Source: Thermoleophilia bacterium
GTDB lineage: Bacteria > Actinomycetota > Thermoleophilia > BMS3ABIN01
NCBI GenBank assembly: GCA_041658605.1
Contig: JBAZZU010000003.1
Coordinates: 23,354 to 87,353, forward strand
Reading direction: 5' to 3'
Length of the DNA: 64,000 nucleotides
The position numbers were made by a program, and so were the translations under genes. Positions 2,453 through 24,224 of this stretch are shown one piece after another (the first letter of the stretch is position 1; every line of letters starts with the position of its first letter). The notes below the pieces were generated by a model, which was given only the letters and a program-made list of their open reading frames with translations, had not been told where the DNA came from and ran no database searches.

Positions 2453-2865
2453 TTGAACTGTCGATGTTCTCCAGCCCGGCACAGATAGCGCTGGCCAGGA
2501 TAACCGGGCTCGGCTCGGGTATGCCTGCGAGCGCACCGGGTACCACGACGATGATCCTTCGCCTTCGACGAATCGAGGATCCCCAGCGCGACCTGGAAGA
2601 ACTCCAGACGAAGGACTGGGACGACCCGCGAGCGAAGGAGGCCCGCAAGCGAATCAAGGCCGGCGCTGACTCAGGTGTCGGCCTGGACTCCGATGGGCAT
2701 TACACGCTCGACGGGCGCCGCTGCTGCTACGGGCTGATGCACCGGCTCTCAAACCGCGAAAAAGTGGCCTGTGAAGACGGCGTTGAGCGGGACCTTCAAT
2801 GCAATCGCCGGTGGCGCTGTTCCTGCCGGGCGCTCTGGGAAGCGCAGTACGAGGTGCTATCGTGA
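2449..2865 (+). CDS. Hypothetical Cys-containing protein
   Basis: GTG 2449 overlaps the previous stop. Ends with TGA overlapping the GTG of the portal candidate. Confidence 0.35.
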   Translation: MIELSMFSSPAQIALARITGLGSGMPASAPGTTTMILRLRRIEDPQRDLEELQTKDWDDPRAKEARKRIKAGADSGVGLDSDGHYTLDGRRCCYGLMHRLSNREKVACEDGVERDLQCNRRWRCSCRALWEAQYEVLS

Positions 2866-8590: not shown

Positions 8591-9961
8591 ATGCCCTATA
8601 AAACCGTTCCGAAGCACCTCCACGGCTTGACCCTGGCCCAGGCCAACCGCTGGGGGTCCGTGTTTGATGCGGTTCAGGGCTCCACTGGCGACTCCGAGAA
8701 AGCGGCTCGGGTGGCTTGGGGGGTGATGAGGAAGGCTATCATGGCGGTCCGTGTTCCAGGCCATACCAGAAACGGACACTATGTGAAACCCTACCTGCGG
8801 ATGATGGACCGCGCCGAGGCCCAGGCGGGACCAGGCGAGCGCATCGTTTACCGGGCGTCCAACGAGAACGCTCCCGAGGTCGGTACGCACTACACCGAGC
8901 AGAAGGAGCACGCGGTCGCCTACACCGATAATTCTGGTTTCGGTGGCTCAAAGGTCCATCGGTACGCGATCAAGCCGCAGAACGTGGCGGATACGGTCGG
9001 GGAGGAAAGGAACGGTCTTCGAGGACTGGCGCTTGCCTACCTGCGGGCGCTCGACCCTGAAGACGCGGCAGAGGTGAAGGAGAAGACCAGAAGACGACTT
9101 GGCGTGGATGACGACGAGCGGATCACGTCGAAGCACGTCGCGCAGGATTGGGATGAGCGCGGGCTGACTCATGTCTTCCATGTTCTGGAGCACGATCCCC
9201 GGGTTGAACAGGCGATATCGCAGGTCCACGACTGGATCCGGTTTGAGGATGATTTCCCCGAGGGGTCGATTACCTGGAAGCGTCTTGGTGGAGAAAAGCC
9301 GATGAACAAGGGTCTTGTACTGGAGGCCTCAGATACCAACCCCGCAGTCAAGCGCTGGAAGCAGATCGATCGTGGCCACTCCGAGGAAGGGCACCGCTTC
9401 CTTTCGCGGGTCCATGCGGGCGGTGGGCAAATGGCCATCACCCAGGGCCATGCGGACGAGCCGCACGTCAAGAGGCTCCTTCGAGAAAAGTTGATTCAAC
9501 TCAAGAGGAACCCGGGTCACCACTGGAACGAGTACACGGCGCACCTCACGAAGGAGGGCACGAAGTACCATGAGGCCTATCGAGCCGCGCACGAGCAGAC
9601 AGGAAAGCAGGAGAGCCTGTTCAAGGGCGTGGTCTGCATCTACATGATCCGCAGTGACACGATGAGGAAAAGCATCCTTGAGAAGGCGGTTATCCCGGCG
9701 CTCGACATGGTTCCGGAGGACTTGGAGGAAGACGCTACCCCGAACACCTGGACCGAGAACGGGTATACCGTCTCATGGCGACGGGGCAAGCGCGGGCATG
9801 GGTCGGTTACCTTCGAAGGGAACGGGCTGGCTATGCCGTTCGTGATGACCGCTGCGGGCAAGAAGCACGCTCGGATCGTCGCAAGGGACGCGTCGGCGCT
9901 GTTGGCGAAGGGCAAGATCCCGCTTCTTGACGGGGTATTCAGGATGCGGAGAAAGACATGA
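8591..9961 (+). CDS. ChaB-domain protein with long C-terminal extension (456 aa)
   Basis: N-terminus MPYKTVPKHLHGLTLAQANRWGSVFDAV...AARVAWGVMRKA matches the ChaB family signature (MPYKT...LP...AQ...AW.AVK). AGGAG RBS. ATGA overlap with the next gene. Confidence 0.55.
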   Translation: MPYKTVPKHLHGLTLAQANRWGSVFDAVQGSTGDSEKAARVAWGVMRKAIMAVRVPGHTRNGHYVKPYLRMMDRAEAQAGPGERIVYRASNENAPEVGTHYTEQKEHAVAYTDNSGFGGSKVHRYAIKPQNVADTVGEERNGLRGLALAYLRALDPEDAAEVKEKTRRRLGVDDDERITSKHVAQDWDERGLTHVFHVLEHDPRVEQAISQVHDWIRFEDDFPEGSITWKRLGGEKPMNKGLVLEASDTNPAVKRWKQIDRGHSEEGHRFLSRVHAGGGQMAITQGHADEPHVKRLLREKLIQLKRNPGHHWNEYTAHLTKEGTKYHEAYRAAHEQTGKQESLFKGVVCIYMIRSDTMRKSILEKAVIPALDMVPEDLEEDATPNTWTENGYTVSWRRGKRGHGSVTFEGNGLAMPFVMTAAGKKHARIVARDASALLAKGKIPLLDGVFRMRRKT

Positions 9962-11769
9962 ACCAGATCGCGAATCAGCCGGGCGTTCATCTTGACCATT
10001 TGAAGCATAGGTGGGTTCGAGATGAGGACGTGAAACCAGGCACGCGGTTTTATGTGCCTCACCATGAGGAATTGGACGTTCGGTCTGTCAAAGACGGGAA
10101 GGCAGAGGTGGGTTTGGTTGGCCACCCCATCACTGTGGACGTGCCTGAAAAGTCGGTGAAGTACTTTCATGCAGACATGCATGGGCAGTTGAACCACAAG
10201 CCCGATAGTGGCAACGAGCATGTTGACGCCGTAATTAGAGGGGAGGGTGAACACCTCGGCAAGGGCAACGACGGGATCGTTTATCGCCACGGGGAGAAAG
10301 TGGTCAAGGTCTCAACGACCGTCCCTTACCAGCCCTTCAACCGTGGGCAGCACAGGACTCCAGAGGAAGCCCTACGGCATCTTCAAAAGGAGCACGAGGC
10401 CCATACGGCACTCCAGGGGATTCCTGGCGTGCCCGAAGTGGATGGGCAAGAGCATGAGGGGCGATACTGGATGGTTAAGCCGCATCTTTCGCCTACTGGC
10501 GTGGTCGATGAAAAAGAAGCACATCAGGTGCGCGATTCCGTCCGGGCCATGCACGCGAAGGGATGGGTTCTGGGCGATACCGTGCAGGTTGGCCGAGACA
10601 AGTCGGGCGGCATCCAGTTCATGGACCTCGGGTCTGCTCACAAGTCGGATAGCGACTACCAAAGAGAGCACGACGAAGAAAGGTTGGCCTCGTTCTTCCA
10701 TCTTCATCGGTTGAAGTACACGGATCCCCCTGCTGAAGTACAGAAAAAGGAGCGGGTAGCACGCACTCTCCTGGACATGGCCATCAAACACCAGGATCCG
10801 GAAAAGGTCAGGGCGCATCGTATTGAGTGGAAACGACTGGCGAGCGAACACAGGATGAACCTCGTCAGAAAAGACGACTTCGACGGGATGATGGCGTTTG
10901 CGGACATTACCGATGCGATGGAGAAACGGCTTGAAAAGGCCATCTTCCTCAACGGCCAAAAGCGCAACCCCAAGGACTTCGACGAAGCCGCCCTATCTCA
11001 AGGCATCCGCGTGGAGATGGAGCACACCGACGATCCGAAGATCGCGATAGAGATCGCGATGGATCACCTTGCCGAGCGTCCGGACTACTACGATCGGCTG
11101 GAAGAGATGGAAGCGAAGCCGATTCAAAAAGCCATCCTCTCCGGGATCCGCTTTATGTACCTACTACGCAAGTCTCAGCTCAACCTCTTCGACTGGCACG
11201 GCGAACCCGTCCAGCACGAGCACCGCGAGCCGATCCCCACCAGGCCACGCATGGGACCGGGCCCCCTGTTCGCCGAAGAGCGAGCGTCGGCGCCCGTGCA
11301 TGCCCCGCTGCCCCCTATGCCTCCTCCGACCTCGCACACCTTCACCTCCAATATTCACGTCAAGAGCCACCTTCGGCGCCTGCCGTCGGGTGAAGTGGTG
11401 GAGGTAGCCGCGCACGAGAGAACAGCCGATCGGGTAACCCACGACGATCCGAAGCCCCGGCAGACGAAGATCACAGAGTACGCCGACAAGCCGGCGCTCT
11501 TGAAGCCGCCTTCCATGGCACCGCAGCCCCGAGAGATGCCGAAGCCCTTCACGGAAGAGCAGTTAAAAGCGATTGGAGAGGCACGGGTGCGCCAAGAGGC
11601 GGCCGGCGGAACTCCGGGACAAGGAAGGCCCTGGGTACGATGGCCCAGCCAACCAGCGCCTCTCTGCTGCGAAAGCGGGGAGACTTGGGCCCGCGCACCG
11701 GGCAGCGGCAAAGAGCGCCCCGTGGACCTCGCAGGGCGTCCTGCTCCGATGGCAGCAACTGGCGATTGA
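9958..11769 (+). CDS. Protein-kinase-like domain protein carrying a QLNLF motif
   Basis: Gly-rich loop GEGEHLGKGNDGIVYRHGEKVVKV (GxGxxGxV...VxK), hinge-like RYWMVKPHL, degenerate catalytic loop HAKGWVLGD and DLG (DFG-like) motif. QLNLF at aa ~407. The last ~65 aa of this frame have low GC3 and are probably not coding. Confidence 0.5.
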   Translation: MNQIANQPGVHLDHLKHRWVRDEDVKPGTRFYVPHHEELDVRSVKDGKAEVGLVGHPITVDVPEKSVKYFHADMHGQLNHKPDSGNEHVDAVIRGEGEHLGKGNDGIVYRHGEKVVKVSTTVPYQPFNRGQHRTPEEALRHLQKEHEAHTALQGIPGVPEVDGQEHEGRYWMVKPHLSPTGVVDEKEAHQVRDSVRAMHAKGWVLGDTVQVGRDKSGGIQFMDLGSAHKSDSDYQREHDEERLASFFHLHRLKYTDPPAEVQKKERVARTLLDMAIKHQDPEKVRAHRIEWKRLASEHRMNLVRKDDFDGMMAFADITDAMEKRLEKAIFLNGQKRNPKDFDEAALSQGIRVEMEHTDDPKIAIEIAMDHLAERPDYYDRLEEMEAKPIQKAILSGIRFMYLLRKSQLNLFDWHGEPVQHEHREPIPTRPRMGPGPLFAEERASAPVHAPLPPMPPPTSHTFTSNIHVKSHLRRLPSGEVVEVAAHERTADRVTHDDPKPRQTKITEYADKPALLKPPSMAPQPREMPKPFTEEQLKAIGEARVRQEAAGGTPGQGRPWVRWPSQPAPLCCESGETWARAPGSGKERPVDLAGRPAPMAATGD

Positions 11770-12466
11770 CCCTCGCCTGTTGGATGATGAGTTCGCCGAC
11801 GACTTCCCCGGATACAAGAGCCCGAAGCTCCAGGCGGTCATCCAGGCCACGAAGGACCACCTGACGAATCACCCCGAAACCGGCGCCGTGCTTTTCTGTG
11901 AGTACAACGGCGGGATTGAGGCGATGAAGTCGAGCCTGATCGAGGAAGGCTACCGCCCCGAGGACATCGGGGTCTATACGGGCAAGGTGTCAAGCCAGCG
12001 GAAACGGCGCGACCTTCAGAACGACCTGAACAGCGGCAAGATCAAGATCCTCCTTGGCAACACGGCGGCACTTGAGACGGGCGCGAACCTCCAGAAACGC
12101 GCTAACTTTGTCGCTCATCTCAACACGCCATGGGCCCCGGATCGGCTTGTCCAGTCAACCGGGCGAGTCCATCGGCAAGGGCAGGAACGGAAGGTTACCG
12201 TATTTCGCCCGACCGGATCCGAGGTAGAAGAACTCATCGAGCGCGTTGTCTCGCGCAAGCTCCTTCAATCCTCACAGGCGACCGGCGTAACGATGGCCGC
12301 TGACTCTCATGTAGCTGTCTCCATGCGCCGAAAGGGCCGCGAAAAGCTCGACTCCTCCACGATCGCGAAACTGCTGGGAATCGACCCGTCGCTGTTGTCG
12401 CAGAAGGGCGATGAAGCAGAACGCGAGGCCGCAGAGATCAAGGAAATGAAGAAGAGGAAGAAATGA
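11573..12466 (+). CDS. SNF2-family helicase C-terminal lobe (orphan, possibly fused to upstream ORF by frameshift)
   Basis: Helicase-C motifs GKIKILLGNTAALETGANL and QSTGRVHRQGQ (motif VI). No SNF2 N-lobe upstream in any frame. TTG start right after an in-frame TAA. Overlaps 9958..11769 by 197 nt. Confidence 0.5.
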   Translation: MERHGCAKRRPAELRDKEGPGYDGPANQRLSAAKAGRLGPAHRAAAKSAPWTSQGVLLRWQQLAIDPRLLDDEFADDFPGYKSPKLQAVIQATKDHLTNHPETGAVLFCEYNGGIEAMKSSLIEEGYRPEDIGVYTGKVSSQRKRRDLQNDLNSGKIKILLGNTAALETGANLQKRANFVAHLNTPWAPDRLVQSTGRVHRQGQERKVTVFRPTGSEVEELIERVVSRKLLQSSQATGVTMAADSHVAVSMRRKGREKLDSSTIAKLLGIDPSLLSQKGDEAEREAAEIKEMKKRKK

Positions 12467-14184
12467 ACGACTCCGAAGCCACGAATCTCCTGCGCGCCTT
12501 GGCCCCCGTCGGTGGGTCTCCTGGTGGGTTCGACCCCAAGAAGCGCCGCGTGCTCGTCATGCGGCTTCATCGGTATCTGGTGGAGGATGGCGGCTACATC
12601 CCAGCGTGGCTCAAGAACGAGGCGGCCGAGATGCGGAAGGGCGTGATCCTTTACGTCGAGTTGCACAAGGCCGCTCAACTTGGGCTCTTCGGTGGTCAGG
12701 GTCGGGAGTTTCGCCCGGAGGTGCCGAAGCCGCATGGTGGTGGTAAGCCTCGTGGGCCGCAGCAGACCGGGATGACCTCGGGCGGGCTCTTCGGCACGGT
12801 CTGGGTCAAGGACCATGATCGGGTGGTGAATGGGCACGTCGAGCACGTTGACGGTCATGAGAGGAAGGTGGTGGGGAATGTCCACGCGCCCACGTTGACA
12901 GGAAAGGAGGAAGGTGGTAGGGTCGAGAGTGAACCTTCTCCGAAAGAGGAAAGCATGACCCGGCACCCTGACGCTCCGGAAGGATTCGAACCGGTTGACA
13001 TGTCCATTCATGGAGCCCATAAGGCACCATCGAACGAAAAGGGGCAACAGGGCTCTTTCAACTACTGGTATCCGACGCTGGAATCGGCTCGGGCAGGCCA
13101 GAAGCACCATGAAGAGCAGCAACGAGTAAAGGGGGATATGAAGCGGGCGCGGGAACATGAGAAGATCGCTCGCGGATCGGCAAAGTTCATTGAGGCTGAA
13201 ACTCAACGAAGAGCAAAACTCGCGGCGGCAGAGATTCGGCGCACCGCTGTTCCTTTTGTTCACCCGAGTATCTATGAATATCGGGACTACATCAGAGAGC
13301 AGGGTGGTTTCGTGGAAGATGGTGGGTGGAAGGTGCCAGCCGCAGCTCACGCCGCCATTACGGAGCACATCGAGGAGCGGAATCGGAAATTGGCCATCAA
13401 GCGCCAAACGAAGCCATCAGTAACCCCACCGGTTCCGGCCGCACTGAAATACATACCCATACAGCACTCGAACACCTACGACTATCGGGAAGACATCAAG
13501 AAAGCCGGTGGTCGGTGGGACAATAACCAGCGGGTCTGGATGGTCCCGGAAAACAGGCATGCCGAACTAATCGCCAAGATGACGCCTGCGCCTGCGCCCC
13601 CTCCCGCAGCTCCTTTGCCGACGATCGCACCAGGAGAAAAGGAATACACCAGATTTGAGAATGGATCGCGTCGTATGAAGCCCGCTCATCCGTTGGCTGT
13701 CGGAGACGTGGTGTTTCGAGGGGATGGCGCAAACCGAACTTACCAGACGGTCACGAAAGTAAGGCCTTCGCTCTTCCGTTCCGAAAACGATCAGGAGGAC
13801 TTTGGAGAAACCGGAAGAGGTGCAGGTTGGTATCATCCGTATACCGTTCGACCTGCTACTGAGGAGGAATCGGCCAACCTCCGCGGCAAGCACGCAGAAG
13901 CAGACGCAAAGGTCAAGGCTGCGACTGCCGCAAAAATGGCGCTACAGTCAGCCATCCAGACGGCGGAATATCCGAAGAAGGCTGAACCATCAGGAGAGAG
14001 CATCAAGATTGGTCAAAATGAAACAATTCAGGTTGAGCCAGACCTTCAACACGCGTGGCACATCAAGTATAACGGTCGTGATGGCGACAACTGGGCCTAC
14101 AACAACCTGGGCGGCCACTCGATCGCGCATCGGTTCCCAATGACTCCTGAACTATCAGGACACATCGAAGCGCTGAAAGTCTAA
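12463..14184 (+). CDS. Hypothetical protein (573 aa) with QLGLFGG motif and two tandem ~40-aa repeats
   Basis: ATGA overlap with the upstream gene. KAAQLGLFGG...RVVNGHVEHV module shared with 16185..18518. Repeats YEYRDYIREQGGFVEDGGWKVP / YDYREDIKKAGGRWDNNQRVWMVP. Confidence 0.5.
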   Translation: MNDSEATNLLRALAPVGGSPGGFDPKKRRVLVMRLHRYLVEDGGYIPAWLKNEAAEMRKGVILYVELHKAAQLGLFGGQGREFRPEVPKPHGGGKPRGPQQTGMTSGGLFGTVWVKDHDRVVNGHVEHVDGHERKVVGNVHAPTLTGKEEGGRVESEPSPKEESMTRHPDAPEGFEPVDMSIHGAHKAPSNEKGQQGSFNYWYPTLESARAGQKHHEEQQRVKGDMKRAREHEKIARGSAKFIEAETQRRAKLAAAEIRRTAVPFVHPSIYEYRDYIREQGGFVEDGGWKVPAAAHAAITEHIEERNRKLAIKRQTKPSVTPPVPAALKYIPIQHSNTYDYREDIKKAGGRWDNNQRVWMVPENRHAELIAKMTPAPAPPPAAPLPTIAPGEKEYTRFENGSRRMKPAHPLAVGDVVFRGDGANRTYQTVTKVRPSLFRSENDQEDFGETGRGAGWYHPYTVRPATEEESANLRGKHAEADAKVKAATAAKMALQSAIQTAEYPKKAEPSGESIKIGQNETIQVEPDLQHAWHIKYNGRDGDNWAYNNLGGHSIAHRFPMTPELSGHIEALKV

Positions 14185-14186
14185 TC

Positions 14187-14465
14187 GTGCTGCTTCTTTT
14201 CGTTCTCCTCCTCTCCTGCGCCCCAGAACCGCCAGAAGTCTGCAATATGGTCTCCGTGCCCTGGGAGCGCTCGACGCTCAAGGCGATCGAGGTTTACCTC
14301 GACTACCTGCCCTGTGAGGCCACGATCGGCTGCGAGTCGCTTAACGGGACCGTGACGATTTACGACCTGGAGCCCGTTTGCGGAGTCGCCTGCCGGGTAT
14401 ACGGATCCTGCCGCCCGGACGAAACGCCGCTGGAACTTCGATACTCCGCGTGCGACTGCTCATAG
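14187..14465 (+). CDS. Cys-rich putative lipoprotein (92 aa)
   Basis: GTG start. Signal peptide LLLFVLLLSC with lipobox L-L-S-C. 9 further Cys. Tail-to-tail 6-nt overlap with the antisense methyltransferase. Confidence 0.4.
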   Translation: MLLLFVLLLSCAPEPPEVCNMVSVPWERSTLKAIEVYLDYLPCEATIGCESLNGTVTIYDLEPVCGVACRVYGSCRPDETPLELRYSACDCS

Positions 14466-15272
14466 CAGCGTAGTTTGCTCCCGCTCCTCATCCTGGCCCA
14501 TTGGCAGACCTATCTGAACGCCAGCGGCCTCGATGCTCTCCAACCTGCGCGCCGCGATGTCGAGATAAGCCGGCTCCGTCTCGATCCCGATGTACTGGCG
14601 CCCAGAGAGTAATGCAGCCTCTCCGATGGCCCCAGAACCTGCGAAAGGGTCAAGGACCGTGCCGCCATGGGTCACGACGGAAACGAGCCACGCGCAGACC
14701 CTTGGGGGCTTTTCGGTGACGTGCTCGCGGTCCCTTGAAGACGCCTCGGTGACGTAACCGGGCAGGCAGCCGATCCCTGGTCTGTCGGTCGGCATCGGTC
14801 CAAGGGTTCCGACGGCGATGAATTCGCCCGGGTTCCAGAACCAGCCCATCCGAGGCCTTGACGATCCGGGAGGCTTCAACCACGGGTGGATCCCGCGAAG
14901 GATGAACCCGCCCACTTGGAGCGCATCACAGACCGCGCCAACCTGCCGCCAGTCGGAAAAGACGCATGCCGGACTGCCGGGGAGCATGACCCGAGTCGCA
15001 CGGGCCGCAATCTCCCCAAGCCAGATCGTGAAGGATCGCTGGTCTCGGTTGTCGCCTGCGAAGTTCGGAAGGTATTCGGCCTGCGCGGAATCGGAGCTGA
15101 GATACTTCTTGCGGGTGTCTAGCGTTCGATCACCACGGAAGGCACCCCCCGAAGAGTACGGGGGATCCGTGATCAGGGCGTCAACGCGGACGCGTTCGCG
15201 TTCGAGATCCGCGAGTACGAACAGGGAGTCGCCGTTGTAGAGTTTCCAGGTCTTTCCTTGGGCGTGTAGCAT
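14460..15272 (-). CDS. Beta-class DNA methyltransferase (N6-adenine or N4-cytosine)
   Basis: Motif IV LITDPPYSSGG near the N-terminus and motif I DPFAGSGAIG near the C-terminus (IV before I gives beta class). Confidence 0.8.
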   Translation of the reverse strand: MLHAQGKTWKLYNGDSLFVLADLERERVRVDALITDPPYSSGGAFRGDRTLDTRKKYLSSDSAQAEYLPNFAGDNRDQRSFTIWLGEIAARATRVMLPGSPACVFSDWRQVGAVCDALQVGGFILRGIHPWLKPPGSSRPRMGWFWNPGEFIAVGTLGPMPTDRPGIGCLPGYVTEASSRDREHVTEKPPRVCAWLVSVVTHGGTVLDPFAGSGAIGEAALLSGRQYIGIETEPAYLDIAARRLESIEAAGVQIGLPMGQDEEREQTTLL

Positions 15273-15437
15273 GGTGGAAGTGTAACACGTTGCATGGAGA
15301 GGTCAAGGTGGCACGGTCTTTGCTACACCTTTCAGTGAAAGGAAAGACCATGGAAACCCTCATCGCGGCGGGATCGGCTCCGGCCATCCTCATGTCGAGT
15401 TCTTCGTTCCCGTCTACCGAATCCACGCGAGCAAGCC

Positions 15438-15653
15438 ATGACCTGCCCCCGCTGCCACCAGCAATTCACCCCGACAGCAGAGGAGTCCAAGTGCCCCGAC
15501 TGCGAGCGGGAGATCCTTCGTCGCAGGTACGAGATCGCCAGGATCCGCCGACATGGCGAGACCTGGCTTCTCGTCTCCCCGCGCCATGTTCTCGCGGGTG
15601 GGTTCGCCTCGCGCGAGCAGGCCGAGAGGTTCCGTTCCGCCAGGGTGGGGTAG
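15438..15653 (+). CDS. Small zinc-ribbon protein (71 aa)
   Basis: CPRC...CPDC pair. Lies divergent from the methyltransferase across a 165-bp intergenic region. Confidence 0.4.
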   Translation: MTCPRCHQQFTPTAEESKCPDCEREILRRRYEIARIRRHGETWLLVSPRHVLAGGFASREQAERFRSARVG

Positions 15654-15660
15654 ATCCGGA

Positions 15661-16158
15661 ATGGACCTCTTCAACCATCAAGGCGCCGTCTTCTCGGAGG
15701 ATCGCGTCTACCGCTATCGGCTCTGGCGGCATCCTCCTGATACCCGGTTCGCCGCGTTCATCGGGCTCAACCCGAGCACCGCTGACGAAACCCAGAACGA
15801 CCCGACCGTGACCCGTTGTATCGGGTTCGCTCGGTCGTGGGGTCTTGCGGGCATGGAGATGTTGAACCTTTACGGGTTTCGCTCGACGGATCCCGATCCG
15901 ATGTTCAAGCACTCTGCTCCTATAGGACCGGGCAACGACGAGGCGATCCTGGCGGTCGCTCGTGAGGCGTCGATCGTGATCGGCTGCTGGGGCGCGTTTC
16001 CTCAAGCCCGCATCCGTGCTATCGAGGTTCATAGGATGCTTTCCTCTGCCGGTATCGTGCTTCATGCTCTGCAATTGACTTCGCAGGGTTGGCCTCGGCA
16101 TCCTCTCTACCTCTGCCGAGACCGGGAGCCCTTTCCATGGAGGATCCCTGCGGGGTAA
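15661..16158 (+). CDS. DUF1643-family protein
   Basis: YRYRLWR...FIGLNPSTADETQNDPTVTRCIGFA...NLYGFRSTDP...CWGAF closely matches the DUF1643 signature as I recall it. ATG at 15661 inside track ORF 15553..16158. Confidence 0.6.
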   Translation: MDLFNHQGAVFSEDRVYRYRLWRHPPDTRFAAFIGLNPSTADETQNDPTVTRCIGFARSWGLAGMEMLNLYGFRSTDPDPMFKHSAPIGPGNDEAILAVAREASIVIGCWGAFPQARIRAIEVHRMLSSAGIVLHALQLTSQGWPRHPLYLCRDREPFPWRIPAG

Positions 16159-16184
16159 AGAGGTAACACCATTCGAGGGTTCCC

Positions 16185-18518
16185 ATGCACCTCTATCGCC
16201 CCGTTCGATCCGCTGACGGTTCTCTTTCGCTACGTGCCTCGGAACTGGTCTTCCGTCGCCCCGATGTGGCCCCCCGCGAGCTGCGCAAGGCCCTTCGTCT
16301 TCCGATCGGCATCGGCTGGCGTGACATCGACCAGGACGTGGACGGTGGCAAGGAGAAGAGGATCGTGGAGTGGGGAACGGTCTCCCGCTACTGGCCCTCA
16401 CTCGAAGCCGCCATGGCCGCAGAACGGCGCTACCTGATCCTCGGGTCGCAGGATGACGGCTACGGGATTCCCCAGGTCGAGCGGCCCGGGTCGGTCCAGG
16501 CCTGGGAAGCACGGGAGCGCGCCCGTTCGGCTCATGAGATGGTGATCTACTACTCGCCCGACGGGTGGACGGCTCTTGCTGGTGACGAGCACGGTGGGCA
16601 GGTCAAGGTGCTCGACGACTGCCGCGCGTACCGCTGGCCCTCGCTCATGGACGCGCTCTCTGCTGAGACGGCGTGGAGAGAGAAGGCGGACGCCGCGACC
16701 CTCAAACAGGTCCAGGCCGAAGCGCGCGGTGGAGAACCGAAGCCTTCGTTCTACGGTTACGGCGCGTTCATGGACGCGGCGCGGAAGTGTGCGGAGTTCA
16801 TGGCGCTTGCGGATCCGGGTGTCGGGGCGCCTCTCGTTCGGTTCACGGTGGACCTTCGCAAGGCCGCTCAAATGGGGTTGTTCGGAGGGGAGACACGGAT
16901 CCCGGAGCGGTCGCATCAAATGGGCCTCTTCGGTGGGACCGCGCACGTCAAGGCGCATACCCGGGTGGTCCATGGGCATGTGATCGAGGTGAAGGCCCAT
17001 GATCGGGAGGTCGAGCATGGGGCGAACCATCCTCCCGAGGTGATGGGGCACTCGGCGCCGGGACATCGGGTGGATGTGGATGCGAAGGTGGCATGGCCAG
17101 AAGTCAAAGAAGGCAACCTGTACCGCATCCATTTCGACACCCGCGACGAAGGCCAGCCGCACGGCGACTATATCGCCAAACGAGCCTCGACGAATCATCA
17201 CCAGTTCGAGAACCTTCTCAACGGCGCCCCCATGATGTTGAACCGGGATGCGGAAGGGCAGGGGAAGCACAGTCTGAGCGGCAAGGAAGGTGTCAGGATC
17301 CGAAGCGTTACAGGGTTTGAGGATGCTCTGGATGAGGCGAAAGCCAAGCATGAGATCATCCGAAAGGACGCGGAACGGGCGGCTTTGGCACCGAAGGTTG
17401 AGGAGAAGCCCTCCATTTCCGTCGATCCGGCCCAAATCGTCAAACCAGCGGACATTCAACCACCGGGCCCCATTCGTGACTACACCGACATGAAGCCATC
17501 GGTCGGTATGAAGGTTCACGGGCACTACATGCGGTCACCCTTCACCGGCACGGTCCATAACATCGAATCCGACTCAAGCGGATACCCTGGCACCCAGAAC
17601 GATCGCAGGTTGTGGGTGAAACTTGATAGCCCCCTGGTGGTCCCGGAAGGTGATTCGTCATACCCCGCCGGTCACGTTCGGCGCGAGGCAGGGGAAAGCA
17701 TCATTTTCCACGGGGAAAAACAGGCGTCAGGACATACACGGGTTCATCATGACACCCATCAAACCCTGGATTCGGTAGATAATCCGCTTCCTGGGTTGGT
17801 GCCCTTCGTAACAGACTACGATTCACGAAAGAAAACCCATACCCTGTCCGTGAACGGGAAGATGTCGAGCCATCCGACGCATGAAGCCGCGTTTGCTGCG
17901 GGGATGGAGGAGGTCAAGCCCACAACGCAACTTATCACCGAAGATGAGCTGAGAGAGCAGACCATCAAGCCCCCACCCAAGCCCACCCTATCCGTCAAAC
18001 CTGCGGAAATCGTTCAGGTTATACCGGGTATGGAGCACGAACATCCGGACTTTCCAGGCCACCGGTTGACCCGTGTGCAAACCCGGGAGAGGGACATCAG
18101 TTCCCGTGGTCGGGGACATGATTTATACACAATGATTGCCGGCCCAGAAGATGACACAATGCACTGGAGCGACAAGCATGTTGGCCATGAAGTAATTTCG
18201 GACGATTATCCAAGGTCAAGGTCCATACGATCAAGCGATAGACATGGTGAAACCTATGCGCATATGCCGCTCAAGCCCGGTAGTGTGATTATGCGTCTCA
18301 AAAAGAATACCGACGGGACAACCCAGAAGTCTGCGTTAGTTGTTCCGGAAAGTGGAGGAGACACATACCCAAGACACAAAGATCAACCACTGGACGCCGA
18401 TAGTTTGCCGTCTGCAACGGTAACCTCACGCAAAGCGGCTACTGGATGGGAAACTGTAGTAGATATCCCCGAAGGGATATCGGGTGTCAAGGCTGGTAAG
18501 CGAATTTACCGAGGATAG
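16185..18518 (+). CDS. Hypothetical protein (777 aa) with two QMGLFGG motifs; paralog of 12463..14184 module
   Basis: KAAQMGLFGG...HQMGLFGG...RVVHGHVIEVKAHDREV parallels the 12463 protein. His-rich C-terminal half with lower GC. Confidence 0.5.
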   Translation: MHLYRPVRSADGSLSLRASELVFRRPDVAPRELRKALRLPIGIGWRDIDQDVDGGKEKRIVEWGTVSRYWPSLEAAMAAERRYLILGSQDDGYGIPQVERPGSVQAWEARERARSAHEMVIYYSPDGWTALAGDEHGGQVKVLDDCRAYRWPSLMDALSAETAWREKADAATLKQVQAEARGGEPKPSFYGYGAFMDAARKCAEFMALADPGVGAPLVRFTVDLRKAAQMGLFGGETRIPERSHQMGLFGGTAHVKAHTRVVHGHVIEVKAHDREVEHGANHPPEVMGHSAPGHRVDVDAKVAWPEVKEGNLYRIHFDTRDEGQPHGDYIAKRASTNHHQFENLLNGAPMMLNRDAEGQGKHSLSGKEGVRIRSVTGFEDALDEAKAKHEIIRKDAERAALAPKVEEKPSISVDPAQIVKPADIQPPGPIRDYTDMKPSVGMKVHGHYMRSPFTGTVHNIESDSSGYPGTQNDRRLWVKLDSPLVVPEGDSSYPAGHVRREAGESIIFHGEKQASGHTRVHHDTHQTLDSVDNPLPGLVPFVTDYDSRKKTHTLSVNGKMSSHPTHEAAFAAGMEEVKPTTQLITEDELREQTIKPPPKPTLSVKPAEIVQVIPGMEHEHPDFPGHRLTRVQTRERDISSRGRGHDLYTMIAGPEDDTMHWSDKHVGHEVISDDYPRSRSIRSSDRHGETYAHMPLKPGSVIMRLKKNTDGTTQKSALVVPESGGDTYPRHKDQPLDADSLPSATVTSRKAATGWETVVDIPEGISGVKAGKRIYRG

Positions 18519-18521
18519 CCC

Positions 18522-21500
18522 ATGTTCACCCCCTGCAAGTGCTCCAAAGGCTGCAAGGCCCACGCCATCATCACAGCGCTCGACATGGACGGGACCACCT
18601 ACCCTGTGCGAGTCCCCTATGAGCACCGCTACTCCTCGATCGGCTGGGGCGACCGTCCGCGCGTGCGGTTCGGTGATTCCGTAGCCGTCGAAGTGGCGCG
18701 CGGAGAGAAGGGCGTCCAGGCTCTTGACGAACTCGGCAACCTTCACCGGTTGAACCATGGCGCGTTCTCCACCTGGATTCCGGAAAGGAAGGGCAAGGCT
18801 CTCAAAAAGGCGGAAGTCAAAGCCGGTCAACGATGGATCACGGTCCACCCCGGCGGCGAAGGCTCAACGGGCGTCCCCATCCTGATTCAGGAGGAGAAGG
18901 ACGGAACCCACCGAGTCGTGGCAGGCGCGGGCGGGAAACTGACGCACCTCCGGCTTGAGAACGTCAAGAGCGCGGACGAATACGCCAAGTCCAAAGCCGA
19001 CAAGAAGGCCGCAAAGAAAGAGAAGGACAAGACCGCTCCGAAGGAAGTCAAGGAGACCAAGAAGGAAGCCCACGAGAAGAAGCGCGAGGCCGAGCGCCAG
19101 TTCGTCAAAAAGGTGAGCACGAAACTCGGGGGAGTCTCCGAGGATCGCAAGCGTGACGAATCCGAATCTCCCGCCGTCGCACGTCGGCTTGACGCGCAGC
19201 ATCATCGAAAGCAGGTCAACGAGGCCAAGAAGCGCGCCCACGGAGCCATGCAGGCGGTCGTTGCAGAGCGGACCGGGCAGGAGAGGGCAAAGGCGCTCAC
19301 CTCCGAGGATACTCCCGAGGTCTCCGCTCACGTTCAGGAAACGATTCGCGCAGAACTCGACGACGAGGAAGCCGCTCAGAAGGCGCGCAAGGAAGCCCGC
19401 GCGCCAAAGATGATGGCCTCCCGGGCCGTGGACCCCGGAGCGCAAGAGAAAGCCGTCGTCCATGCCGTTGAAGCGGTCAAGCAGGCCCCTGAGCAGCTCG
19501 ACAAGACACTTGAAGCGCTCGGCGGGCGTACTGACTCGGGCGAGGTTCTCCGGCTCTCTGTCGTGCCTGCCGTGGAGGCGAAACGCCGGTCCCTGCAAGC
19601 GCTCCAGGACGCCCAGATCATCCATGAAGCCCTATCGAACGGGCCCCCGAAAGACGAGAAGCAGCAGGCGATCGTGGAGCAGGCCCTGGGCGGCGCGAAA
19701 CTCGGAACCGAGGAGGCCAAGGAAGCACTCCAGACCGCCATGGTCTCGAAGGTCAACGAAGCCGAGCGGCACGAAGTCCAGTCCAGGAAGCTCGACCAGA
19801 TCGCACGGGACAAGGGCGAAGACGTGGCCGACCGTGCTCTCCGGGCGACCGACGCGGCAAGGGCCATCGCTCGCGAAACACAGGAAGCGCGGCGCCTGGG
19901 ACTCGACAATCCCGAGAAGACGCCCCTTACTGTGCCTGAAACCGATGAACTCATGGACGTGGTGAAGGACCTCCAGGACCTGAAAGCGAAGACCCGAGCC
20001 CTGAAGAACGTCGTCAAGGACGCGGAAAAGGGCAACTTCGATCGGTCGCGCCGTGCGTTCAAGATGGACGTTCAAGCGGCCCCCAAAGACGTGGAGATGT
20101 CGATCGAGGAAGAGGTTCAGCGCTCACTCACGGAGCAGCTCCTCGGCGCGGTCAAGACCGATCGCCCGGAGTACATCCAGGGCGTCACCGCTGGGCACTA
20201 TGACGCCCTCGCGGATGTCGGCTTGCAGATTGGCGGCCAGCGCTACCTGGACCGCCCCACGGTGGACGCTCTCGGCGCGAAGAATGCCGCGATCCTACTC
20301 CGGTATGGGCTTGACCAGGACGGGCACGATATGGACGCCGTTCGCCAGGCCGTGGAAGAGTCGCACGTTGACGCGGTGAAAACCGAAGCCGCCAAAGCCA
20401 TCGAGAAAGCGCGATCCTACGTCCCTGGGTTGGTCCACGAAGTCGATACAACCGAAGACGCCGAAGCAGCAATGGCGCACTTGGACGCCCACGAATCCGA
20501 GATCGTCTCAGCGCAGAAGGCCCTTTCCTCGGCGATCGGGAGGCTCGAAGGTACGGCTACCCTTGGCCAGGCGCTGCGCGACAAGATGCCCGATAGCCTT
20601 TCCGTTCGGGGCACCTCTCTTGAATCGTCTCAGCAGTGGGTTCATTCGCTCGGGCTTCACCCTGCCGATTACGAGGTGAACGCTGCACGGAACGAGATTA
20701 CGATCCCCCGCCGATCGTGGGACAAACTGCTATCCCGAGACTCGCGCGAGGACATCGACAACCGGCGCGTGGTCAACGAGATCAAGGCAGGTCAGCACGA
20801 CATCAAGGGTTGGCTTCCTCCCGGCATTGCCTATCGAGAGGCCTCCACGTTCACCGCGCCCGTTCCCAGCGCTCCTCGCATGTGGGAACCGCTTTCGTTC
20901 GATGGCGACCTCGACGAGGCCATCAAGACACACGTCGGCGCCCGGTTGGCATCCGGTGAGCATATCGGGGAGATTGCGTCTGACATCTCCTCGGAAGGTG
21001 TTGCTTCGCAGGCCCCGAGCGCGAAGGAATACCGCGCGGCACTCGAGCGGCACTTCCCTCTCTACAAGGAAGGTGGAAAGGAACGGCTCACCGAAGCCCT
21101 GGCGGCTCTTGGACCTCGGCCGGAGAACGAGAACGAGGCGATCGAGTGGGACCGAAAAGCCATTAAGGCGGAGCAAGCGGAAAAGGTAGGCCTGACGCAC
21201 TTCGCCGACAAGTGGGAGTCCTGGGCCCAGGACTACATGGAAAAGAAGCACGGTGGCGAGGGAGCCTATCACTCGCAGAACCTGCATCCCGAGGACGTGG
21301 CGACCCGTGAGGCCATTTTCCGGACGCTGGCGGATCACCCGGAGGGCAAGATCGCCTTCAAGCCGTCGGGTCAACTGACACCGCAGGAAGAGGGGGTGAT
21401 TCGGGACCGGTACTATCAGAGGATGGGGATCGACCCGAAGGTGAAGGTTGACGAGGCAAGGTTCCAAAGGGAGATGGCCCAGGCCAGTATGCCGGAAGGG

Positions 21501-24224
21501 CAGTGGGAGACCATGGTCAAGGAACACGAAGGAGAAGGCATAACTCCAGGGCAGGCCAAGGCCCGAGCCATGTCTCACCTTGGAGAGAAGGTCAAGAATG
21601 AGGCGTATTACCAAGAACTGACGAAACCATGGGACAAGACGGCTGGAACTGCATCTATAGACGAACCAAAGGATGTAAAACAACGTCGCCAATACCTGAC
21701 GCGCGAACTCGCCGCACTCGGGAAAGAGCCCGACCGCCAAGACAAAGAGGCCAACCAGAAATGGCAAGAAGCGCGTAATGCTGTTTTTGAAAAGGCCGAC
21801 ACCGATTCTGGCAAGGAAGAACTTGATGAGACCAGTCCCGAATACCGGGCTTGGCAAAAACGACGTGATGCTGTTCTTGCCCGTCATCCGCGAGCGGGTA
21901 TGCAAAGCGCAATCGATAGTCTCGACAAAGCCGATCCGGAGTACGCAAGCAAAGTCGAAGCCATCAAACAGGACGCAGCGACCGCCCCCACCGCCTGGGG
22001 CAACTACGTTGAAGCGCACGGTTCGCGGCAACTGGCGATCGAGGCCCTGCAAGATGAGATGAGGGGCGAATTCGTCAAGACGTACCAGGAGCACCACGGA
22101 AAGGTCACCGGGAACCCGCTACGGGTGGGCGTTCAGGACGTAACCAACAAGGCGCGCCATATCCGGGCAACAGGATCCCCCGAGGAAATCGCGCAAGCCA
22201 GGGCAGAGGAAAGGTCCAGGCTATCCAGTCTCCAGAAGAGGCAGGGCGGCGGATTTACCGAGATGGGCGGTGCAGGGTCGGCGAAAGCCCTGTTCACAAA
22301 AGCACTTGAACAAGACGAAATCGACAAGTCAAGTCAACTCGCTATGTTCGGATCGGCTACCTCCTCGGTGGCGGACCTCCCCGAAAAGAAGATCGAGCCG
22401 AAGACCGGCCAGCGGTGGAGTCTCGGAACCCGCGCGGAATCGCAACTTGAGAGCGTCATCAATGGCGGCCTGGGCCAGCAGTTTCAACCAGGAAGCCCGA
22501 TCCGGCTTTTCGGTGGGCTCAACATGGATGGCGATCGAATCCACCAGCAGCGGGTTCTTCGCCAACTCGATCGGGTCAAAAGGATGGCGGCGCTTCTCGG
22601 CACGGGCGCGGGGAAGTCGCTCACCTCGATCGCAGGGTTCACCCAGGCGCACGCGAAGGGTGAGGCATCCCACGGGCTCTATCTGGTCCCTGCCGCAGTC
22701 CAAGACCAGTTCGGCGGCGAGATGTTGCGCTACACGCAGCCCGGGAAATACAACTGGGCAACGGGTGGCGGAAAGAGCCACGCGGAACGGGTACGGATGC
22801 TCAAGGATCCGTCTATTCATATGCGGGTTATGACACACCAGTCCTTCCGGGATACTGCCCTAAAACTCATGGCAGACCACCATGGTCGGACTACCGAGAA
22901 GATGACAGAGGACTTCGGAAAGGCAGACCCAAAGACCCGCGCCCGGTGGATGCGTGAGGCCTTCGATGCCCACGGGATCCCCCGCCACTTCGTCTATTAT
23001 GACGAGGCGCACACCGCGACCTCCGAGAACGAGAAGAGCGCCTCTCTGACTCATGACGTTGCGACGGCGGTAACGCATCCGTCGAACGCTACCCATCTGC
23101 TTCTCGGGACCGCCACCCCCACGAAGAACAACACCGGAGAGATGCACTCATGGGCCTCGCTACTCGATCCGGACAAGTACGCCGATCGGTGGAAGTTCAT
23201 GCAGAACTTTGGGAGGGAAACCGCCTGGAACCCGAACGCGATCCGTCAAGAACTTGGGCACCGGGTTTACACCGCCAGAATCGACCCCGAAGGAGTATCC
23301 CGAACAGACACCGACAACCCGACCGTGGAGGAAAAGGAAGTCCAGACTGGTGAGAATATGTGGGGTCCAACCTACGAAAAGCAGAAGGTGAAGTCTGCCG
23401 GCAAGCCGATCGAACTTCACCCTACCCAGAAGGCCCGGGTAGATGAGATCACGGCGGCTTATGAGCAGGCATCCACCTCGTTCAAGAAGGGCCATGTGGA
23501 CGTGGAGAGCATCCGGAAAATCAACCCGGCACCGTTCGAGGGTAAGACCGATGAGCAGGCCCAAAGCATCGCGCGGAACATGATGAAGGGCCTTGGCTTC
23601 ACCCGTGACGCGGCGCTGGAGCGGGCGATCAACCGCTCGCCTGTGGGCCAGAACGCGAAACTGGACGCCCTGGCCTCTGTCGTCCAGCATGACCTCGCGC
23701 AGAACTGGACCGATCGGAAAGGCAACGCGCGCAAGGGGAAGGCCTCGATCATCTTTTCGGACTCGGCGCAGGATGGAAAACTCATCAACCAGCACCTTCG
23801 CTCTCTTGGCGTCCGCTCGGCTTTCTATCACGGTGGGCTTCCGAACGAGCAGAAAGAAGCCATCCGCACCGGGTTCCAACCCGAGCAAGGCGAGCCGAAG
23901 CACGACGTTATCGTCGCCACGTCGGCGGCCGAGGCGGGTCTGAACCTCCAACGGGCAAGCGTGCTGCACAATTACGACGTGCCCCAGACTGAGAAGAGCC
24001 ACGCGCAGAGAGCCGGGCGAGCGTACCGGCAGGGGCAACTTGGCGACGTGGAGATTCACAACTGGCACACGAACACGGCGTTCGAGCGTCGGGCGCTTCA
24101 ACTGCTCAAGGAGAAGCGGTATCTCGCTTCCGTGTTTCAGACTCCGATCGGCCATATGGACGACACAGGAACGGGCCTGCGTTATACTCGGATCATCTCA
24201 CGCAAACATGAGGCTGCGGCATGA
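18522..24224 (+). CDS. Giant 1900-aa protein with C-terminal SNF2-family helicase (polyvalent/DarB-like)
   Basis: Complete SF2/SNF2 core: Walker A GTGAGKSLT, DEAH (YYDEAHTA), motif III LLGTATPTKNNTGEMHSWASLLDP, helicase-C with QRAGRAYRQGQ. Long Lys/Glu coiled-coil N-terminal 1300 aa. QLAMF motif just before the helicase. Confidence 0.7.
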   Translation: MFTPCKCSKGCKAHAIITALDMDGTTYPVRVPYEHRYSSIGWGDRPRVRFGDSVAVEVARGEKGVQALDELGNLHRLNHGAFSTWIPERKGKALKKAEVKAGQRWITVHPGGEGSTGVPILIQEEKDGTHRVVAGAGGKLTHLRLENVKSADEYAKSKADKKAAKKEKDKTAPKEVKETKKEAHEKKREAERQFVKKVSTKLGGVSEDRKRDESESPAVARRLDAQHHRKQVNEAKKRAHGAMQAVVAERTGQERAKALTSEDTPEVSAHVQETIRAELDDEEAAQKARKEARAPKMMASRAVDPGAQEKAVVHAVEAVKQAPEQLDKTLEALGGRTDSGEVLRLSVVPAVEAKRRSLQALQDAQIIHEALSNGPPKDEKQQAIVEQALGGAKLGTEEAKEALQTAMVSKVNEAERHEVQSRKLDQIARDKGEDVADRALRATDAARAIARETQEARRLGLDNPEKTPLTVPETDELMDVVKDLQDLKAKTRALKNVVKDAEKGNFDRSRRAFKMDVQAAPKDVEMSIEEEVQRSLTEQLLGAVKTDRPEYIQGVTAGHYDALADVGLQIGGQRYLDRPTVDALGAKNAAILLRYGLDQDGHDMDAVRQAVEESHVDAVKTEAAKAIEKARSYVPGLVHEVDTTEDAEAAMAHLDAHESEIVSAQKALSSAIGRLEGTATLGQALRDKMPDSLSVRGTSLESSQQWVHSLGLHPADYEVNAARNEITIPRRSWDKLLSRDSREDIDNRRVVNEIKAGQHDIKGWLPPGIAYREASTFTAPVPSAPRMWEPLSFDGDLDEAIKTHVGARLASGEHIGEIASDISSEGVASQAPSAKEYRAALERHFPLYKEGGKERLTEALAALGPRPENENEAIEWDRKAIKAEQAEKVGLTHFADKWESWAQDYMEKKHGGEGAYHSQNLHPEDVATREAIFRTLADHPEGKIAFKPSGQLTPQEEGVIRDRYYQRMGIDPKVKVDEARFQREMAQASMPEGQWETMVKEHEGEGITPGQAKARAMSHLGEKVKNEAYYQELTKPWDKTAGTASIDEPKDVKQRRQYLTRELAALGKEPDRQDKEANQKWQEARNAVFEKADTDSGKEELDETSPEYRAWQKRRDAVLARHPRAGMQSAIDSLDKADPEYASKVEAIKQDAATAPTAWGNYVEAHGSRQLAIEALQDEMRGEFVKTYQEHHGKVTGNPLRVGVQDVTNKARHIRATGSPEEIAQARAEERSRLSSLQKRQGGGFTEMGGAGSAKALFTKALEQDEIDKSSQLAMFGSATSSVADLPEKKIEPKTGQRWSLGTRAESQLESVINGGLGQQFQPGSPIRLFGGLNMDGDRIHQQRVLRQLDRVKRMAALLGTGAGKSLTSIAGFTQAHAKGEASHGLYLVPAAVQDQFGGEMLRYTQPGKYNWATGGGKSHAERVRMLKDPSIHMRVMTHQSFRDTALKLMADHHGRTTEKMTEDFGKADPKTRARWMREAFDAHGIPRHFVYYDEAHTATSENEKSASLTHDVATAVTHPSNATHLLLGTATPTKNNTGEMHSWASLLDPDKYADRWKFMQNFGRETAWNPNAIRQELGHRVYTARIDPEGVSRTDTDNPTVEEKEVQTGENMWGPTYEKQKVKSAGKPIELHPTQKARVDEITAAYEQASTSFKKGHVDVESIRKINPAPFEGKTDEQAQSIARNMMKGLGFTRDAALERAINRSPVGQNAKLDALASVVQHDLAQNWTDRKGNARKGKASIIFSDSAQDGKLINQHLRSLGVRSAFYHGGLPNEQKEAIRTGFQPEQGEPKHDVIVATSAAEAGLNLQRASVLHNYDVPQTEKSHAQRAGRAYRQGQLGDVEIHNWHTNTAFERRALQLLKEKRYLASVFQTPIGHMDDTGTGLRYTRIISRKHEAAA

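Follow-up and report, generated by a model that had tools for sequence, protein, structure and literature searches.

How the large multidomain polyvalent proteins of phages and plasmids reach their place of action, and how their parts are organised, is an open question, and it is raised again by a run of large genes in a stretch of 64,000 nucleotides (nt) from a Thermoleophilia bacterium assembly (contig JBAZZU010000003.1), referred to here as the window. The window is a fragment of a tailed-phage genome with a G+C content of ~0.6, in which a series of large plus-strand open reading frames (ORFs) occupies the interval between the portal and major capsid genes. The initial annotation had noticed that two proteins of this series, P573 (573 amino acids (aa); 12463..14184, plus strand) and P777 (777 aa; 16185..18518, plus strand), share an ordered block of short segments around a pentapeptide resembling the motifs that bind the bacterial sliding clamp, and it had read the block as a duplicated domain extending beyond that pentapeptide. 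The block proves to be more widespread than a pair of paralogs: as judged from sequence, it is a portable adaptor module, present in at least four consecutive proteins of the window phage and at domain junctions of polyvalent proteins in unrelated uncultivated phages. Below we describe the module, its distribution, and the readings that may account for it.

A shared block in consecutive phage proteins

P573 (aa 61-167) and P777 (aa 218-314) align colinearly with 37% identity and a BLASTP E-value of 1e-9. The common elements follow each other in the order first described, LxVxLxKAAQxGLFGG, GLFG[GT], VKxHxRVVxGHV and VxxH[DE]R[EK]V, and the pairwise alignment shows similarity well beyond the pentapeptide, in agreement with the idea of a homologous domain. 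Between the two copies, the coding DNA has diverged at synonymous positions (for example, CTC versus TTG for Leu and GGT versus GGA for Gly), which indicates conservation at the protein level; a recent DNA duplication as the source of the likeness was rejected for this reason. The notion of a two-protein paralogous duplication was thus correct as to homology and too narrow as to extent, since P603 (603 aa, with a DUF5661 domain; 9958..11769, plus strand) carries a third full copy, P456 (456 aa; 8591..9961, plus strand) a degenerate fourth, and foreign phages carry others. The P603 copy (aa 398-491) is colinear with that of P573 (BLASTP E = 0.001). A regular-expression scan of all six frames of the window for the hairpin signature found just three real ORFs, those of P573, P777 and P603; in an alignment of the three segments, L, Q, L, F, V, K, H, R, G, V, V, H and R are invariant.

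The module has three parts: a hydrophobic lead-in ending in L-x-K-A; a linker of 2-56 residues containing zero, one or several Q-x-x-[LM]-F motifs, usually followed by Gly; and a unit of ~27 aa, V-K-A-H-x-R-(4-5 residues)-G-x-V-x-V-x-x-H-x-R, which we call the hairpin. In P573, the lead-in VILYVELHKAA, QLGLF (12676..12690) and GG occupy 12643..12696 on the plus strand, on which all features of the module given here lie. A second motif, GGLFG (12781..12795), is degenerate, lacks the Gln and abuts the hairpin, a His/Arg β-meander (GTVWVKDHDRVVNGHVEHVDGHERKVV; 12793..12873) whose fold is taken from AlphaFold2 (AF2) models of homologous segments. In P777, the lead-in VRFTVDLRKAA, a first QMGLF (16869..16883) and GG span 16836..16892, and a second QMGLF (16917..16931) lies five residues ahead of the hairpin, the β-meander GTAHVKAHTRVVHGHVIEVKAHDREVE (16935..17015). 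The module of P603 (11149..11430) consists of a lead-in with QLNLF (11176..11190), a Pro-rich linker of 56 aa and the hairpin NIHVKSHLRRLPSGEVVEVAAHERTAD (11350..11430). The degenerate hairpin of P456 (VMRKAIMAVRVPGHTRNGHYVKPYLR; aa 45-70, 8723..8800) was read from the translation by eye, without statistics, and a motif scan of the same protein found QESLF at aa 340-344 (9608..9622). A lone QLAMF(G) (22335..22349) is found in P1900, a 1900-aa SNF2 helicase protein (18522..24224, plus strand), ~65-70 aa upstream of its helicase domain. Qxx[LM]F is therefore present in all five large proteins of the block (P456, P603, P573, P777 and P1900), and the pattern in the window is of one module per separately encoded protein.

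Tandem Repeats Finder also reports a 46-nt unit repeated 2.2 times with 78% match at 12822..12922, spanning the second half of the P573 β-meander and the linker that follows. The period is not a multiple of three, and its copies are therefore in different reading frames.

Fold and separability of the parts

AF2 predicts the ~27-aa unit to be a four-stranded β-meander with a predicted local distance difference test (pLDDT) score of 90-96 and with the conserved His/Arg pairs on one face; for P777, four strands are predicted with block values of 96 and 90. No family in Pfam, PHROGs, NCBIfam or PDB covers the VKAHxR…VxVxxHxR unit, a sequence search of PDB gave no match to the hairpin, and fold searches with the hairpin model found no significant neighbour. 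In comparison with the β-ribbon arms of HU and IHF, the hairpin gives noise-level scores and no sequence similarity, and the hairpins of the window are not strongly basic.

The clamp-like peptide and the hairpin are separable, since each occurs without the other and their order can be reversed. The hairpin by itself (…LLKAHVKAHTRKTKSGKVVQVKEHED…) is common in small phage proteins and in polyvalent-like ORFs of IMG/VR, in one case directly after an InPase domain. The hairpin is also inserted in two tail-completion/Neck1 proteins, P0027 (PF05069, phrog_26) and P0032 (HK97-gp10-like, phrog_5). Motif-only versions are found in the giant SNF2 proteins of three phages (P1900 of the window, at 22335..22349; L005, 14074..19509; L041, 7905..12572), where Q(L/A)(A/G)(M/L)FG occupies an aligned site ~65-70 residues upstream of the helicase domain, just ahead of a conserved G(Q/E)RWS(L/I)G…DGDRI(H/A)QQR and helicase motif I. 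In the L005 protein, two further copies of QGGLFG are inserted at this site. The order is reversed in P0022 and P0008, in which QLALF follows the hairpin. A direct contrast is provided by the sequences after the homologous LPD1 domains of two carriers: P0010 has LTKAQQLALFGSPAATKPVQVKAH (LTKAQQLALFG…VKAH), whereas P0007 has LNKAEAHVKEH, with no motif. The clamp-like peptide thus behaves as an insertion between KA and the hairpin.

In P0016 and P0025, tandem hairpin units (VKAHTMKTKSGKVVLVKAH… and VKGYTRNTKSGKIITVKGYTR…) are found in small proteins with signal-peptide-like N-termini.

The module at domain junctions of polyvalent proteins

That the module could be sought in other phages, as the initial annotation had proposed, was borne out by two approaches. 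When a three-sequence profile of the module was compared with 1.84 billion representative proteins, it picked up the three window proteins together with six genuine carriers from elsewhere (P0007, P0008, P0009, P0010, P0012 and P0015). Nine of the 15 profile matches were discarded as repeat-rich proteins (for example, zinc-finger arrays and a Cys-rich repeat protein of the cell-surface type). A degenerate DNA pattern for QLGLFG…VKAH, run against IMG/VR, recovered a high-GC phage lineage with eight hairpins in at least five proteins, among them InPase+Mom, C5 methylase and GNAT proteins as well as other domains. A clamp-like motif lies 2-6 residues upstream of every one of the eight hairpins (QLSLF, QMSLF, QLGLF, QLELF, QLNLF, QLGFF and the hexapeptide-type QLALDF), and single polyproteins contain up to four modules. 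The same pattern gave 29 of 33 matches, within L024-L056, to one unrelated widespread element, in which a frame …ICGHQLGLFGRCDSHSARAIVKAHGDG… was matched by chance; this frame is probably a wrong-frame reading of a common gene.

Other searches were negative. The three-sequence profile gave no match in a word-indexed search; tblastn of P777, of the compact composite AVRFIFRLTKAAQLSLFGGQSTVKAHARKTPKGITQVKEHQRK and of the hairpin consensus against 50,697 deposited phages returned nothing or noise; and searches of IMG/VR, GTDB genomes and JGI metagenomes with module or domain alignments yielded no confirmed relatives. The module is essentially confined to uncultivated phages. Those that bear it have G+C contents of about 0.5 to 0.7 and unrelated DNA.

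The foreign carriers have the domains of polyvalent proteins: InPase, ART-PolyVal, LPD1, DUF5661, C5-methylase, Mom, GNAT and SNF2. P0007 (2566 aa) contains InPase, DUF5661, ART-PolyVal, LPD1 and a HATPase domain, P0008 (1531 aa) InPase and a C5 methylase, and P0010 (1260 aa) LPD1. The contig of P0010 has the same gene order as the window, with a 2264-aa InPase/DUF5661/ART protein, the 1260-aa protein and a 1811-aa SNF2 protein. In all these proteins the modules are located at junctions between recognised domains and never within a domain. Two comparisons connect the foreign junctions with the genes of the window. P0015 is orthologous to P777 over the N-terminal domain and the module (E = 3e-19); its likeness to P777 ends at the hairpin, and its downstream segment resembles the C-terminal region of P573 instead (E = 3e-4). 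The N-terminal domain of P603 matches an internal domain of P0008 with 45% identity (E = 1e-50), and the P0008 domain begins directly after a hairpin. From these homologies, the window block is best read as a polyvalent arsenal that has been split into separate genes, with the shuffling breakpoints at the modules.

The same LxKA lead-in also introduces another short element, hhLRKAMGGPYIGPRGGKWxDP, at further junctions of polyvalent proteins, as seen in P0007 (aa ~400-440 and ~690-720), which points to a set of junction elements that can replace one another.

The pentapeptide as a candidate clamp-binding motif

The bacterial β-clamp (DnaN) recognises the consensus QLxLF or QL[SD]LF (PMC4549789; PMC12867686). 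Two of its E. coli partners, Pol II (QLGLF) and UmuC (QLNLF), have been crystallised on β, and the UmuC motif is internal, on an inter-domain linker (PMC3716654). The motif of P573 is identical, letter for letter, to that of Pol II, and the motif of P603 to that of UmuC. The window motifs as a set (QLGLF, QMGLF twice, QLNLF, QLAMF and QESLF) agree with the pentapeptide consensus.

The motif is strongly enriched. In 16.6 k residues of carrier proteins, 21 occurrences of Qxx[LM]F were observed against 1.5 expected (maximum 6 over 500 shuffles), a count that is partly subject to ascertainment bias, as the profile that retrieved P0007, P0010 and P0015 itself includes the motif. When more loci were added (23.8 k residues), the number rose to 29, and about half of the occurrences were unselected on the motif, being second copies, neighbouring ORFs in L004, L005, L041 and L046, the SNF2 proteins, and P0022. 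Gln and Phe are present in 29 of 29, and position 4 is filled by Leu (26) or Met (3); position 2 holds Leu in 17 and Met in 5 occurrences, and position 3 holds Gly in 17, Ser in 4 and Ala in 4. Within the window, the 5,008-aa block has six motifs, compared with none in 12,535 aa of the other genes.

The surroundings of the pentapeptide are those of an exposed, flexible segment. AF2 gives pLDDT values of ~53-62 over the motif, in contrast to 90-96 over the hairpin, and the orthologue P0015 keeps both motifs of P777 (as QLSLF and QVGLF) although the linkers have gained or lost 9-10 residues. Retention across linker indels, together with low pLDDT, is behaviour typical of a short linear motif. 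The residues after the Phe vary (GG, GR, TA, GS, KR, PP and RQ). A double-glycine or LxGG-type protease site was considered and rejected, since the GG after the Phe is not conserved.

What the module may do

We favour, with a confidence a little short of even, the reading that the shared block is a two-part adaptor that would tether phage effectors to the host β-clamp and to DNA. One part would be one or two Q-[LM]-[GSAN]-[LM]-F(-G) motifs displayed in a flexible, indel-rich Gly/Pro linker, and the other the ~27-residue hVKAHxR-x4-5-G-xVxVxxHxR β-meander with its His/Arg face. Phages may have attached this adaptor to the individual effector domains of a virion-proximal polyvalent arsenal: methylases and Mom-like enzymes, the SNF2 translocase, a conserved domain judged kinase-like on inspection, and the domains of P573 and P777. 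Once an effector has been delivered or expressed early, its pentapeptide would dock in the hydrophobic cleft of the host clamp, and the docked effector would ride on clamp-loaded DNA. The hairpin would provide a second contact, to DNA or to a surface of the virion or of a partner. Clamp tethering fits the fact that many of the attached domains are DNA-directed (C5 and N6/N4 methylases, Mom-like, SNF2), and it fits the presence of one module per window protein, as expected of a tag required by every polypeptide. There is precedent for such use of clamp motifs by mobile elements, as the MuC protein of phage Mu uses two near-consensus motifs (QHDLF and QPDLF) functionally (PMC12867686) and insertion sequence transposases use QLxLF (PMC4549789). 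A more specific version of the proposal, which we put forward as possible and only tentatively, is that a common adaptor, made of the clamp peptide and a new KAH β-meander minidomain, loads early-acting or injected anti-defence enzymes, ART-type enzymes among them, onto the host β-clamp in order to protect or process the incoming genome, with the hairpin as a virion or DNA handle. In a literature search, we found no publication linking polyvalent proteins to the sliding clamp.

Several observations weigh against clamp tethering. The assignment of the pentapeptide to the clamp is drawn from motif identity and statistics, the latter partly biased by the retrieval of three carriers as described above. 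Position 3 and the residue after the Phe are mostly Gly, a narrower pattern than QL[SD]LF that may point to some other partner. In P777, the two motifs are spaced by 11 residues, which by a rough estimate is probably too short a distance for both pockets of one clamp dimer. Hairpin-only versions are common, including those in the tail-completion/Neck1 proteins and in the small proteins with signal-peptide-like N-termini, so that the hairpin need not relate to the clamp; the latter proteins do not sit easily with a role of the hairpin confined to DNA or the clamp. The window hairpins are not markedly basic, which weakens the simple idea of DNA binding, and the attached domains include ART and InPase, which have no obvious need for DNA tethering.

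The strongest rival reading is that the module, and especially the hairpin, serves to incorporate proteins into the virion by binding capsid, portal or DNA, so that the effectors are packaged and co-ejected, with QxxLF contacting a phage partner. This would suit the location of the block between the portal and major capsid genes, and the presence of one module in each separately encoded protein; moreover, no MuF domain that could otherwise explain packaging was detected, the hairpin is inserted in the virion proteins P0027 and P0032, and packaging and injection of polyvalent proteins have been proposed by Iyer et al. (PMC5512222). We nevertheless regard it as unlikely. A phage-specific partner is not expected to impose a universal host clamp consensus, down to identities with Pol II and UmuC, across divergent phages; just upstream of SNF2 helicase domains, the motif recurs at a conserved position with no hairpin beside it; and up to four modules per polyprotein would be redundant for targeting unless the polyprotein is cleaved. 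Cleavage is itself the basis of another proposal, that the modules are processing sites or domain delimiters at which a zincin-like metallopeptidase or the prohead protease cuts the polyprotein, those in separate ORFs being relics. Metallopeptidase processing of polyvalent proteins was also proposed by Iyer et al. (PMC5512222), P0007 and P0010 contain a HEWGH zincin motif, the modules always lie between recognised domains, and the modules coincide with the limits of homology between carriers (P0015/P777 ending at the hairpin, P603/P0008 starting after it). In the window, however, no HExxH or HExxxH and no recognisable protease is encoded between the terminase and scaffold genes, and the module is well conserved in proteins that are already separate, where a cut would free just a stub of 60 aa (P573) or 215 aa (P777). 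The variable residues after the Phe are unlike a defined scissile site, and a 27-aa unit that is predicted to fold with confidence is unlike a cleavage loop. We consider processing quite unlikely.

It could also be that the block has no specific function, being a product of low complexity or chance, or a DNA-level recombination joint for domain shuffling. The linkers are indeed Gly/Pro-rich, the modules coincide with shuffling breakpoints, and P573 and P777 share ~40 nt of fairly similar DNA at the first segment. Nevertheless, the pairwise E-value is 1e-9, conservation falls on Q, L, F, V, K, H, R, G, V, V, H and R rather than on the low-complexity parts, the synonymous differences point to selection on the peptide, the module recurs in phages of about 0.5 to 0.7 G+C with unrelated DNA, and AF2 folds the hairpin with confidence. 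Chance and low complexity are largely refuted by these results, and absence of function as a whole is highly improbable. Clamp tethering remains the reading that we prefer, with virion incorporation as its main competitor.

Relation to known systems

The pentapeptide resembles established clamp-binding motifs in its Gln at position 1, Leu/Met at position 4 and Phe at position 5, in its placement on internal linkers, as in UmuC, and in having precedents among mobile elements and phages. It differs from them in occurring serially across a battery of phage effectors, in the hhxLxKA that precedes it and the Gly that follows, in its frequent fusion to a β-hairpin, and in the Gly at position 3. The carriers resemble the polyvalent proteins that Iyer et al. 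described from phages and conjugative elements in their repertoire (InPase, ART-PolyVal, LPD1, DUF5661, methylase, SNF2) and in their location beside virion genes (PMC5512222); P0007, P0008, P0010, L005 and L041/L046 are textbook cases. The window departs from the type in that its domains are spread over consecutive ORFs, whereas the classical proteins have 2-15 domains in one polypeptide, and the match between P603 and P0008 suggests that it is a disaggregated version of the same. The main text of Iyer et al. (2017), whose work defines 40 LPDs, mentions no clamp motif, linker or hairpin of this type (PMC5512222). What appears to be new is the pairing of a linear motif of a familiar type with a minidomain not yet catalogued, and the setting, from which neither part had been described.

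Portable targeting peptides and clamp tethers are both familiar from other systems. The capsid-targeting sequences of the T4 internal proteins are short portable peptides that direct unrelated enzymes to the prohead, and a PIP-box tethers DNMT1 to PCNA, the sliding clamp behind the fork serving as a platform. These are functional analogies for the two leading hypotheses, with no sequence relationship to the module.

If the proposal is correct, an adaptor at every junction would give a testable answer to the question of how polyvalent proteins reach their place of action, namely that the host sliding clamp, or else the virion, recruits them. The use of clamp motifs by phage Mu in transcription would then extend to a class of anti-defence effectors. 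The hairpin fold would also be of practical use, both in searching metagenomes for polyvalent-type proteins and in marking domain boundaries in giant ORFs that cannot otherwise be annotated.

DUF5710-like repeats in P573

P573 contains a second repeated element, which appears separate from the adaptor and which we interpret as a tandem pair of DUF5710-type domains of ~45 aa each. The initial annotation had described it as tandem 40-aa repeats. The repetition is real (BLASTP E = 3e-7 between the two copies, seen at 13273..13338 and 13477..13548), yet the period is 68 aa, and the copies are domains separated by a linker rather than abutting 40-mers. Repeat 1 covers aa 263-305 (13249..13377) and repeat 2 aa 330-373 (13450..13581), both on the plus strand, and the duplication has left a trace in the DNA of 34 nt with 76% identity at a spacing of 204 nt. 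Scanned by itself, repeat 2 matches PF18974 with 28.0 bits, above the cutoff of 26.5, but as part of full-length P573 it scores 23.6 bits. Repeat 1 alone has no match in Pfam; it is too diverged for the model and is tied to DUF5710 through repeat 2.

The repeats had also been likened to short DNA-binding repeat units of some plasmid and phage primase-associated proteins; of this comparison, the part that concerns plasmid DNA-processing proteins is a fair one in view of the DUF5710 score and of the plasmid annotations. In tblastn against plasmids, relatives of repeat 2 occur under the annotations DUF5710, Sno-like (Strawberry-notch-like) NTPase, zincin peptidase, TopA and exonuclease; the E-values, from 1e-3 to about 0.8, denote weak similarity, and the annotations are concordant. 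P573 resembles the family in that its repeat 2 scores above the Pfam cutoff when taken by itself, though not within the full protein, and in that its relatives are found in plasmid DNA-processing genes. It differs in having two tandem copies inside a phage protein, and the family itself is without an assigned function. PDB matches for the DUF5710 region, to the MERS spike, were spurious.

Genomic setting and further observations

The block spans 8591..24224. In addition to the portal (2799..4508) and the major head protein (26425..28026), the window encodes the terminase large subunit (2..1609) and a baseplate wedge protein (from 40971). The effector-type domains of the block are DUF5661 (P603), the SNF2 helicase (P1900), a Helicase_C fragment, an N6/N4 methylase and DUF1643; P573 and P777 are without a recognised effector domain. 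Scans of NCBIfam and PHROGs gave no match for P456, P603, P573 or P777. P573 is an orphan over its full length, its sole database match being itself, a hypothetical protein of a Thermoleophilia metagenome-assembled genome on a 96.7-kb contig.

The plus-strand block is interrupted between P573 and P777 (14460..16158) by the N6/N4 methylase gene, on the minus strand (14460..15272), and the DUF1643 gene (15553..16158). The contig of P0015 has a similar arrangement, with a divergently oriented C5-type DNA methylase gene just upstream of the P777 orthologue. P603 is followed by an ORF with Helicase_C only (11780..12466, plus strand; 228 aa as called from 11780), which matches phrog_62 and DarB-like families. 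Its frame (11573..12466) overlaps the last ~60 codons of P603 (11580..11769), and these resemble out-of-frame sequence; the ORF may reflect a frameshift or be a decayed SNF2 C-lobe without its N-lobe.

At the N-termini, P603 (aa 18-264; 9958..10750) has no Pfam match and shows by eye a kinase-like G-loop, GKGNDG, and an MDLGS motif, and the N-terminus of P456 looks ChaB-like on inspection. The N-terminal domain of P777 contains an internal duplication (16308..16424 and 16560..16667; BLASTP E = 5e-4); a look-alike of this repeat at aa 171-223 of P573 is not significant (E = 0.37). The duplicated motif, GW..I..D.HGG…(Y/R)WPSL..A..AE, is present twice in the orthologue P0015 as well.

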